DNA from: Alloascoidea hylecoeti
Taxonomy: Eukaryota
Direction of reading: 5' to 3'
Length of the DNA stretch: 64,000 nt
Assembly (NCBI GenBank): GCA_001600815.1
Contig: BCKZ01000008.1
Span: 620,001 to 684,000 of the forward strand
Position numbers and translations under genes: made by a program. Below, piece by piece: positions 13,071 to 29,330 of the stretch (the first letter of the stretch is position 1; each line of letters starts with the position of its first letter). A model generated the notes under the pieces. It did not search any database, was not told the origin of the DNA, and saw only the letters and a program-made list of their open reading frames with translations.

Positions 13071-14364
13071 ATGAGGTTCTCAAATCCCATGTTGTGTTTT
13101 CTGATTGTTATCCTTTATGCTACCGCAAGTCAAGCTCTACGTGAGATAACAATGGAGGATATGAATAACATCAATTTTAATATAGAAAAAATCAAACAGT
13201 CCATGCTTATGGCCATTTTTTCGGATGATATTGAGCTTTGTGTAAGTATCATATGAATATACTATAGCGCTCATAATTAATAATTGCATTAATTGATAAT
13301 TTTTAAAAAAAAGTTGCAAGCTTTGGAGAATTGTTACTGTCATTCAAGTCCATATATTAAAAAGAATATTGTTGTTGAAGAAGATCATAATTACTGTGAA
13401 ATATCTGCGTGGTGTATTAAAAAGATTGAAGTGAGTCTAACCTACCTATCATAATTTGGAACCTCAATTAATAATCTAGAACTATCTAAGTTTCTATATA
13501 TTTTACACATTCAAGTAAATTAATAACTAATATAATTAGGCTCGATTAGAAGAGAGTGTCGTTCAAGATCTTTTATTTGATTTGAAAAATGGTTTTATTG
13601 AATGTCCTAGGTCCATCCATACTGATCGAATGCAATTTAATGAACATATTCTGAAACTAAAAGAATCATATGTGACATTATCTGAAATAAAAAGTGATAC
13701 CAAATTTCAATTCAATTCAGAATCAAAAACGGACGATGAGAAAGAAAAAGGATCTGAAACTTTGCATCATGCTATGATTAAAAGAGATCTAGAGAAATTT
13801 GAAGATAATACCTCAACTGCTGATAAGGATATTGAAACCAATTCTAATGGAAGTCCATATGATACCGATTATGACCAACTTGATATCGATTATGATCAAC
13901 CTGATTCCAATTATGAAGATAATATTAATATGAAGGAATCCAAAAGTATTATCGATAATGAAAGTCCATATGACACCGAATATGATCAACTTGATTCCAA
14001 TTATGAAGATGATATTAATATGAAGGAATCTGAAAGTATTCTCAATCGTGAAACTGAGATACCACGTTCTGAAATTCAATCTAGGTATTCAGAATGTTCT
14101 TCCACCATAACTTCTAATATTATCACCACCACCGCTACTACTTACAAGTACAGCCCTCCAGGTACTTCTCAATACATTTATAAGCATACTTCAAGTTTCA
14201 TGTCATATATTTCCCCACCTCATGGAGGTAAAGCGAGACCAAAACCAAATCCCAGGCCTACATCGGGGTCTCTTGGGTATGAATCTTTTAAAAACCTTAC
14301 CAAGCTCAACGTTCTTGCAACTTTCACCACTATTTTGATCGCAAATATTTTGTTTTACCTTTGA
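13071..14364 (+). CDS. Orphan secreted, probably GPI-anchored surface protein; exons 13071-13241, 13314-13430, 13540-14364
   Basis: N-terminal signal peptide, Cys-containing domain, acidic tandem repeats, S/T-rich stalk and hydrophobic C-terminus (VLATFTTILIANILFYL). GTAAGT and GTGAGT donors join the exons in phase 0. Confidence 0.7.
13846..14046 (+). repeat. Intragenic tandem repeat (111 + 90 nt units)
   Basis: NGSPYDTDYDQLD(IDYDQPD)SNYEDNINMKESKSI versus NESPYDTEYDQLDSNYEDDINMKESESI; near-identical DNA. Confidence 0.9.
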
Positions 14365-26543: not shown

Positions 26544-26628
26544 TCTCCTGGGGGTGAATCGAACACCCGATCTCAAGATAAACTTTTCCATTACAGTCTC
26601 GCGCCTTAGCCAACTGGGCCACCAGGAG
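26544..26628 (-). tRNA. tRNA-Tyr(GUA) with an 11-nt intron (26590-26580)
   Basis: CTCCTGGTGGCCCAGTTGGCTAAGGCGCGAGACTGTAA[tggaaaagttt]ATCTTGAGATCGGGTGTTCGATTCACCCCCAGGAGA forms a full cloverleaf and closely resembles yeast tRNA-Tyr. Confidence 0.96.
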
Positions 26629-26964: not shown

Positions 26965-29330
26965 ATGAATAATTTCAATCCTTTTGAATCGACTTTAAAT
27001 CATCCTCATCCAAAATTTGGAAATGATAGCTATTCTAAGCTGTATTCTAATGGATCATCAAATTTAACGGATCAACCCCATCTAACGGCGTTAAAGACAT
27101 CTAACGCAAATTCTCTACTTATCGGAAACGGAAAGGAAAACATTCAATCAACATCTTTACTTTCTCCGAATGATAATAATAATAATAATAATAATAATGG
27201 ATTCTTTCTACCTTTCAAATTTTCTACTCCCTGTGATTTTAACACTAGTACAAACACAAATCTAAAGCTTGATAATTTCCATAATTGGCCCTATAACTAT
27301 AAGTTGAAGCAAAATAAGATGCCCCTTTTCACTAATGCTGATTTAAATTTGCCGTCCCCGTTTGTTCCCTCGTTAGGATCTCTTCTTTCAAATTCAACAC
27401 CTACATTTTTAACCAATGATCTTGACAATATCCACCCAGATCCTCAAAACGGTCTTGTGTCTTCTATTCCCCAATCAGACAACTTTACATCAAGAGTTAT
27501 AAAACTTACAAATTTTCCTTTAAAATTTGATCCTATTGTTCTTCATAATATTTGTTCTAATATTGGAGATGTTGAATCTTTAGAAAGACACAAAAAGAAT
27601 AATATGGGACAAGCAATTATAAGCTGGTACGATATAAGGGATAGTGCTAAATGCCATTCAAATATCGGTTTATTATTTCAAGATGTCCCTGGAATTGTAG
27701 GTGAATATGTTGGTACAAATAATGATAATGTACCATTGTTATGTGATGCGACTTTATCCAAAATTGAAATTCATTTTAAAAGAGAATTTACATCCAAACT
27801 TTTTCCTGATATTAAAGTACTTATTTCAAAATTGTCGGAGTTTGGTGATATCCAAAACTTGTCTTTTAAAAGTAGCTCTAAAAAATCATATGTTTGCGAT
27901 TTTTTTGATACCAGGTCCAGTGCAGCGGCGATTAAATACTTGAATGGATCTATTATTGATGTGAGTAAATGGTAATTCATATTTAACAGCTATTATTCAA
28001 TAATAAATACCCTTCAACTGATTTTTTGCTAACTTGAATAGAACTTGGTTGCCGAAGTATATCCTTTTGGGAAAAGAAAATTAGATTCCACAACTTCATT
28101 TCCTACTCCAGAAAATACATTTAGCCCGGAAGTTGCTTACCCTGTTCCATCATATAAAGGAGTATCTTACGATTCAGCGAAGTATTCTAGAAGTAGTACT
28201 GACACCGATTTGAGATTAATGGGATTCTCTAAAATTAATGATGCCAAGCTTGAAACTTCCAAGTCCATGACTGGTGTTGCTACGTTGGCACATCTTCCAA
28301 AAAGGAATACCGTTGATCTCACTAGAATATCCAAAGGATTGGATACACGAACTACCATGATGATTAGAAATATACCCAATAAAGTTGGTCAAGATGTCCT
28401 ACAAAAATATATTGATGTTACCAATAAAGGAACCTATGATTTTTTATGTATGAAATGAAATGAATTGAGCTACTAATTGATCCAGTATAATACCTAAATC
28501 GTTTATTCTAATATTTCTCCTTTTTTATTTTTAGATTTGAGAATTGATTTTGCTAACCGCTGCAAGTATGCCTTTCCTTCGACCCCCAATTTGTTCCAGG
28601 GGATGATTGCAAATTTTAACTTTCATATCATTTAATTAAATTTAGTGTTGGTTATGCATTTATCTCTTTCATTGTACCAGAACACATTATTACGTTTGTC
28701 AAAGCTCGAGTTGGCACCAAATGGTAAACAATACCCTTTTCTTCAAATACATTTTCTTACTTTAAAGTTACTAATTAATAACAAAAATATTATTAACAAC
28801 AGGCGAAATTTTAATTCTGATAAGATTTGTGATATCTCATACGCTAATATATAAGTATTCAAACAACTTATTTTACAAATTTTACCTCTATCTAACTTTC
28901 ATATCATTTACTCAAGGCAAAGAGTCACTAATAGAAAAGTTTAGAAACTCTAGTATTATGGAGCAAGGCAAGTTTATATTATGTACTCTCGGTCAAATTA
29001 GCATTGGCTTTTACTAACTAATTCCCACACAGATAAGAGTTATAGACCTAAGGTATTTTACAGTGATGGGCCCATGAAGGGGCAAGAGCAGGAATTCCCG
29101 AAGCCCAATAATATTGGTAGGAAAAACCGCTCAATTGCGACAATAAAAGAGCTTGGTAAGGAAATAAAATTTTGCATTTTTCTTCTTTTATATCGTTTAC
29201 TAGTAACTAATATTTATATGTAGGTTTATTTGCTCCGGAGCGCGACAAAAAGAATGAGTCCAATTGCAGCAATACAACTAATAATCTTACAATAGCTAGA
29301 TGGATGGAGGAAGATTCCAAATTTAAATGA
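26965..29330 (+). CDS. mei2: Mei2-like RNA-binding protein (RRM1, RRM2, Mei2-type RRM3); exons 26965-27960, 28042-28447, 28535-28565, 28646-28723, 28803-28850, 28912-28967, 29033-29155, 29224-29330
   Basis: Spliced RRM3 reads GLDTRTTMMIRNIPNK...GTYDFLYLRIDFANRCNVGYAFISF...VGTKWRNFNSDKICDISYANIQGKESLIEKFRNSSIMEQDKSYRPKVFYSDGP...GLFAP, the Mei2 family signature. Confidence 0.9.
28851..28911 (+). other. U2-type AT-AC intron (mei2 intron 5, 61 nt)
   Basis: ATAAGT...TCTAAC...CATTTAC. This is the only junction that restores YANIQGK; the nearby GT (28855) lies after an in-frame TAA. Confidence 0.85.

Follow-up and report, generated by a model that had tools for sequence, protein, structure and literature searches.

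U2-type AT-AC introns have been described with the 5′ consensus /ATAAGT, which PMC5029451 sets against the motif of U12-type introns. The class is characterized by Sheth et al. (2006, PMC1557818) as having a good U2-type 5′ splice site except for the terminal dinucleotide, and 24 such introns are reported there among about 610,000 introns of five model species. In S. cerevisiae, an engineered AT-AC intron was spliced (Parker and Siliciano 1993, as cited in PMC5029451). In S. pombe, according to bioRxiv 10.1101/226894, an AT-AC intron of lea1 was confirmed by RT-PCR and is removed without a minor spliceosome. A pan-eukaryotic survey reports no convincing minor introns for Ascomycota, together with the loss of most minor snRNAs there (PMC10639083). 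Our literature search returned no report of a coding AT-AC intron in Saccharomycotina, the only AT-AC event found for this group being a minor by-product of S. cerevisiae RPL30.

The window analysed here is the whole stretch of 64,000 nucleotides, with a G+C content of 31.7% and 20 ORFs of at least 200 codons. It contains a Mei2-like gene whose fifth intron, at 28851–28911, is very likely a genuine spliceosomal AT-AC intron that would be removed by the major (U1/U2-dependent) spliceosome. The best named protein matches of the window are those of Saccharomycotina (Lipomyces, Dipodascopsis, Sugiyamaella, Trichomonascus, Tortispora and Saccharomycopsis), and the host is without a close annotated relative. 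The Sth1/Snf2 ATPase domain, at 79–84% identity to many orders, places the host no more closely than as Saccharomycotina-like. The gene lies on the + strand at 26965–29330, and joining its eight exons by coordinates gives 614 codons followed by a stop codon at 29328–29330. Exons 1 to 4 of the gene model, all on the + strand like those that follow, occupy 26965–27960, 28042–28447, 28535–28565 and 28646–28723. Exon 5 (28803–28850) and exon 6 (28912–28967) are supported by the alignment with homologues. Exon 5 encodes (W)RNFNSDKICDISYAN and the first two bases of an Ile codon, and exon 6 supplies the third base of this codon, then QGKESLIEKFRNSSIMEQ and the first base of an Asp codon. Exons 7 and 8 of the model are at 29033–29155 and 29224–29327. 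The numbering in the first-pass annotation, with exon 5 immediately before the AT-AC intron, agrees with this eight-exon model.

The assignment to Mei2 comes from the alignment with annotated Mei2 proteins and from Pfam matches obtained exon by exon. Exon 1 matches RRM_1 (E 8e-5), while the Mei2-type C-terminal RRM, RRM_2/PF04059, is matched by exon 2 (E 5e-10, profile positions 1–33, 39.8 bits) and by exon 4 (E 5e-6, profile positions 45–69, 27.1 bits), the cut-off being 25 bits. The N-terminal 332 residues, with exon 1 as the query, gave no relatives among longer proteins. Within exon 1, an AAT repeat at 27171–27200 encodes a run of eight Asn. A tRNA-Ser gene (anticodon CGA, 85 nt) is located at 26544–26628 on the − strand, roughly 340 nt ahead of the Mei2 start codon. 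The Mei2 gene has seven introns, whereas most other genes of the window look like single long ORFs.

Intron 5 is 61 nt long, lies on the + strand in phase 2 and contains 21% G+C. Exon 5 ends in TAC GCT AAT AT (28840–28850) and exon 6 opens with T CAA GGC AAA from 28912. The intron between them begins with AT (28851–28852) and ends with AC (28910–28911), directly before the T of exon 6. Its 5′ splice site, ATAAGT at 28851–28856, is GTAAGT with A at position +1, and apart from that position it is a good U2-type site, to be compared with the GTAAGT, GTAAGG and GCAAGT of sister introns. The 3′ end reads TTTAC (28907–28911). A CTAAC at 28892–28896 is a putative branch site of the host type at the usual 3′ distance, the predicted branch A being at 28895, 16 nt before the 3′ end. 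The order ATAAGT...CTAAC...TTTAC described in the first-pass annotation is thus found at these positions. The internal signals, TAAGT at positions 2–6 and the branch motif, sit where the six sister introns have theirs. The composition agrees with these introns as well, and their lengths are 65–87 nt against 61 nt here. A rough estimate from base composition puts the chance of TAAGT and a well-placed CTAAC occurring together at about 5 in 100,000. From these signals we infer the splicing of intron 5, its major-spliceosome type and its branch point.

Exact excision of 28851–28911 yields ...CDISYANIQGKESLIEKF... across the junction. With the flanking exons fixed, every GT-AG, GC-AG and AT-AC pairing within 28810–28960 was enumerated. 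Only three of the 23 GT-AG and GC-AG pairings are open and in frame (28829/28916, 28843/28924 and 28843/28939), and each of them deletes 7–12 conserved residues. The sole pairing that rebuilds SYANIQGKE is 28851/28911, which gives ...NSDKICDISYANIQGKESLIEKFRNSS... as the product. The GT at 28855 had been set aside in the first-pass annotation as lying behind an in-frame TAA, and this holds: the TAA is at 28852–28854, and in all seven AG pairings of this donor the stop is retained or the frame is shifted. The frameshift expected there from joining the AT donor at 28851 to the AG at 28915–28916 was likewise obtained, as a shift of 5 bases. Upstream AT donors at 28847 and 28849 shift the frame when joined to the AC ending at 28911. 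A TA-CT junction (28852–28912) would encode the identical protein, but it corresponds to no known splice type.

The residues at the junction are strongly conserved. When 1.84 billion representatives were searched with HMMER, exon 2 retrieved 361 proteins at E ≤0.001, and the motif [Y/F][A/G]x[I/V/L/F/M]QG is contiguous in 79 of the best 150 of these 361 homologues. Among the fetched homologues with the motif context, 178 of 181 have Q at the junction. The RRM3 stretch of the model, 157 residues long, aligns without gaps to ten annotated Mei2 proteins at 59–75% identity; it spans six junctions, and at none of them does the alignment show a gap. The same gapless stretch is 68% identical to P0026 (748 aa), which from its length and sequence we guess to be an S. 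pombe-like Mei2. The homologue P0285 matches 6yyl_A, ‘Meiosis protein mei2’, with an E value of 3e-61 across the junction. Crystal structures of Mei2 RRM3 (6yyl, which is S. pombe Mei2, 7eio and others) are contiguous over the junction stretch. Since these structures cover the junction, intron 5 interrupts a folded domain, and its retention would truncate that domain. The claim that the intron is needed to build RRM3 of Mei2 is supported by the gapless alignment, the failure of the canonical alternatives and the position of the junction inside the RRM3 of 6yyl. Judged from the sequence, the AT-AC fit is more than chance, because only 28851/28911 rebuilds SYANIQGKE, Q is present in 178 of the 181 homologues, and the internal signals resemble those of the sister introns.

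The splicing of this intron may be pictured as follows. Positions +2 to +6 of ATAAGT would be the part read by U1 and U6, and CTAAC would serve as the branch site through pairing with U2. The G-G contact usual in the second step would give way to one between the A that opens the intron and the C that closes it. The AT at 28849–28850 would then be joined to the T at 28912, by which the Ile codon and the invariant SYANIQGK of the third RRM would be restored. When intron 5 is read through, ATA (28849–28851) is followed by the in-frame TAA at 28852–28854. Translation of an intron-retaining transcript would therefore end at TAA 28852 and leave RRM3 without its final third. Three wood-decay metatranscriptomes yielded no reads for the gene, a result that speaks neither for nor against splicing. 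That the splicing of intron 5 is rate-limiting is a conjecture.

The seven introns of the gene span 61–87 nt and contain 20–35% G+C, and every one of them carries a CTAAC-, CTAAT- or TTAAC-like motif before its 3′ end. Introns 1, 2 and 7 open with GTGAGT, GTATGA and GTAAGG, respectively, and each closes with TAG. Intron 3 (28566–28645, + strand) runs from GTATGC to TAG, and intron 4 from GTAAAC to CAG; intron 5 itself ends in TAC. Intron 6 (28968–29032, + strand, 65 nt) is of the GC-AG type, which the first-pass annotation had overlooked, with the arrangement GAG CAA G|GCAAGT...TACTAAC...CAG|AT AAG. The GT at 28972 was also considered as its donor, and with the sole workable acceptor a stop results. 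The AT-AC ends of intron 5 and the GC-AG ends of intron 6 make two consecutive non-canonical introns in one gene.

Introns 3 and 5 have an exact 18-mer in common (28617–28634 and 28893–28910), which lies within the 3′ part of intron 3. Besides simple repeats and a local duplication near 13900–14013, it is the only repeated 18-mer of the window. The two introns can be aligned over 38 columns (28607–28634 with 28873–28910) with a single gap of 10 nt. Of 5000 shuffles, 4 reached the local score of 19.5, a figure uncorrected for the 21 possible intron pairs, and the pair of introns 5 and 7 has a local score of 18. The likeness of introns 3 and 5 could stem from intron duplication or gene conversion, or from chance in AT-rich sequence.

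Traces of the intron were sought in related yeasts. The comparison with close relatives is one of proteins only; some of these are ORF fragments that read through introns and so report some of the intron bases. For instance, P0369 (149 aa) is an ORF fragment from a relative, on a contig equal in length (6577) to that of P0004, and its intron-derived part closes with ...LIFTQGKECLIEKF. The T in this ending stands for ACN and places AC before the last base of the Ile codon; the counterpart in the window is ...ISFTQGKE. When P0369 is back-translated in the +2 frame, WNRFNSEKICDxSYAN[I/L] is allowed at 17 of 17 positions. After the AT of the Ile codon only A is allowed, followed by C or T, and 64 nt further on AC stands before N-CAR-GGN. 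These constraints point to a second species with A[T/C]...AC at the same site, where the second intron base may be C instead of T. Similarly, P0394 reads ...SYANIYANK, which fits AT|ATATGC. Since Ile rather than Met is encoded, no G follows the AT in P0394, although its first intron base may be T or C instead of A.

Three further annotations have defects at the junction. In P0338 of Yarrowia sp., 13 residues are missing there and the protein reads ...KKWGSTQGKE, with a T (ACN) before QGK. In P0287 of Limtongia smithiae, 16 residues are missing exactly at the junction. P0011 of Trichomonascus vanleenenianus (XP_076542436.1) reads SYANIYGKE, with Y where 178 of the 181 homologues have Q; this is compatible with the product that a predictor restricted to GT-AG would make from AT|ATATGT...AC|N CAG GG. 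The defects of P0338, P0287 and P0011 are probably errors of gene prediction, and as mis-annotations the three agree with an AT-AC intron without proving one.

The AT-AC state is not universal at this site. P0023 and P0032 read ANMQV, so that G follows the AT, and these two proteins imply either a GC-AG intron at the site or a GT-AG intron 4 nt downstream. Annotations from Lipomyces, Ascoidea, Pachysolen and Saccharomycopsis are normal at the junction. In the comparison with orthologs put forward in the first-pass annotation, made here with proteins, P0369 and P0394 fit non-GT/non-AG ends, and P0023 and P0032 have another state. The relatives also differ in intron content, introns 3 and 4 being absent from P0394 and introns 2–4 from P0023 and P0032. 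P0004, a match to exon 2 with 68% identity to the window across 60 residues, and P0017 both read through a short in-frame intron 2.

On the evidence of these proteins, the same non-GT/non-AG intron appears to have been inherited in related yeasts. A further-reaching reading is that it is an old Mei2 intron, selectively kept as AT-AC across several Saccharomycotina lineages, namely the host, the species of P0369 and P0394, Trichomonascus, Yarrowia and perhaps Limtongia. It might act there as a slow, regulatable step gating full-length Mei2 at the entry into meiosis, or might record an intron shift through a non-canonical intermediate. We hold this extended reading to be unlikely.

More distant fungal loci give a different arrangement. 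A metagenome scan gave 80 Mei2 loci, none of them from a close relative, and a pattern script located the junction region in 50 of these; the junction pattern was not found by the script in the other 30. Among the 50 loci, 28 have no intron at the junction, 11 have a GT-AG intron, and in 11 only the downstream motif was seen. The loci with a GT-AG intron are L001, L002, L005, L006, L010, L018, L035, L038, L060, L064 and L080. Their introns split the codon that follows YA in phase 1 (GCN A|GT...AG|AY ATH CAA GG), 4 nt upstream of the AT-AC position of the window, and form with it a near-coincident pair. Because these 11 loci are not from close relatives, they neither share nor explain the AT-AC ends.

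Other explanations of the junction can be set against an AT-AC intron. The AT-AC ends might not be used at all, and GTGATA at 28829, a weak donor, might be paired instead with the AG at 28915–28916. This would excise a canonical, in-frame intron of 88 nt and give ...NSDKICKESLIEKF... in the product. The pairing 28829/28916 is indeed the only open and in-frame one of the GT-AG type, and the same CTAAC stands about 20 nt before its AG. However, this splice would cost the protein DISYANIQG, a segment inside the solved RRM3 that most homologues share without change. The 27 bases that would become intronic match codons for the conserved residues throughout, in the exon 5 frame, and GTGATA is the poorest donor in the gene. 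We consider the use of this donor highly unlikely. An equally small likelihood is given to a dead intron, in which a G-to-A change of the donor would have left a decaying pseudogene or a gene that makes only the protein truncated at TAA 28852. G1-to-A mutations block splicing in standard model introns, which speaks for such a loss. Against it, a second coincidence would be needed to explain the matching C at the end of the intron, none of the eight exons is damaged and conservation continues downstream of the site, and the relative represented by P0369 has the same A...AC ends. That same independent fragment also bears on the notion that assembly or sequencing errors at 28851 and 28911 mask an ordinary GT-AG intron. 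Two independent errors would be needed at exactly both terminal positions, and the pattern would have to recur in P0369, so that an error of this kind is extremely improbable.

A U12-type AT-AC intron, removed by a minor spliceosome, would share the AT-AC ends. The U12 branch motif is TCCTTAAC, and it was not found near the 3′ end, where the only candidate, ATCTAAC, is loosely like it. The Rfam search of the 64-kb window, a small sample, found no snRNAs and one tRNA only. The 5′ splice site is ATAAGTAT (ATAAGT) and not ATATCCTT, the U12-type site with which the U2-type consensus is contrasted in PMC5029451. Ascomycota have no convincing minor introns and have lost most minor snRNAs, according to the survey in PMC10639083, and we regard the U12 assignment as having a negligible probability. 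The first-pass annotation had already held that the donor departs from the U12 consensus, and ATAAGT proves to be the published consensus of U2-type AT-AC introns. Its broader proposal, that a yeast gene here carries a naturally occurring AT-AC intron whose signals are those of the major spliceosome, is likewise supported by the gene model, the alignment, the failure of the canonical alternatives, the 5′ consensus and the protein traces in relatives.

An AT-AC intron at this position would account for the mis-predictions of yeast Mei2 in public annotations, in which residues are missing or replaced exactly at the junction. These mis-predictions suggest that gene finders for yeasts should allow AT-AC introns. 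As a coding and apparently inherited case, the intron would also be a natural substrate for studying the pairing of the first and last nucleotides in the second catalytic step.

The intron of the Mei2-like gene is very probably a further case of the known and very rare class of U2-type AT-AC introns. It resembles the animal U2-type (‘type II’) AT-AC introns, as described for human SCN4A and SCN5A, in having AT...AC ends and a good U2-type 5′ site, and it matches the published /ATAAGT consensus of the class at six of six positions. Unlike the animal type II introns, it is found in a Saccharomycotina-like yeast, has a length of only 61 nt and carries a yeast-style CTAAC; its dependence on U2 is predicted from these signals. 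The lea1 intron of S. pombe (SPBC1861.08c) is likewise reported as a natural coding AT-AC intron in an ascomycete yeast that has no minor spliceosome, and lea1 too was earlier mis-annotated. The two differ in gene and in subphylum, and the lea1 intron was proven by RT-PCR and RNA-seq, whereas the Mei2 intron is known from sequence. In budding yeast, the nested AT-AC intron of S. cerevisiae RPL30 (PMC5029451) is the comparable event. As described there, it is a side product of 1–2%, its 5′ site is unlike /ATAAGT, and it is dispensable for the protein. In contrast, the Mei2 intron has the consensus 5′ site, and its removal would be required for a conserved domain.
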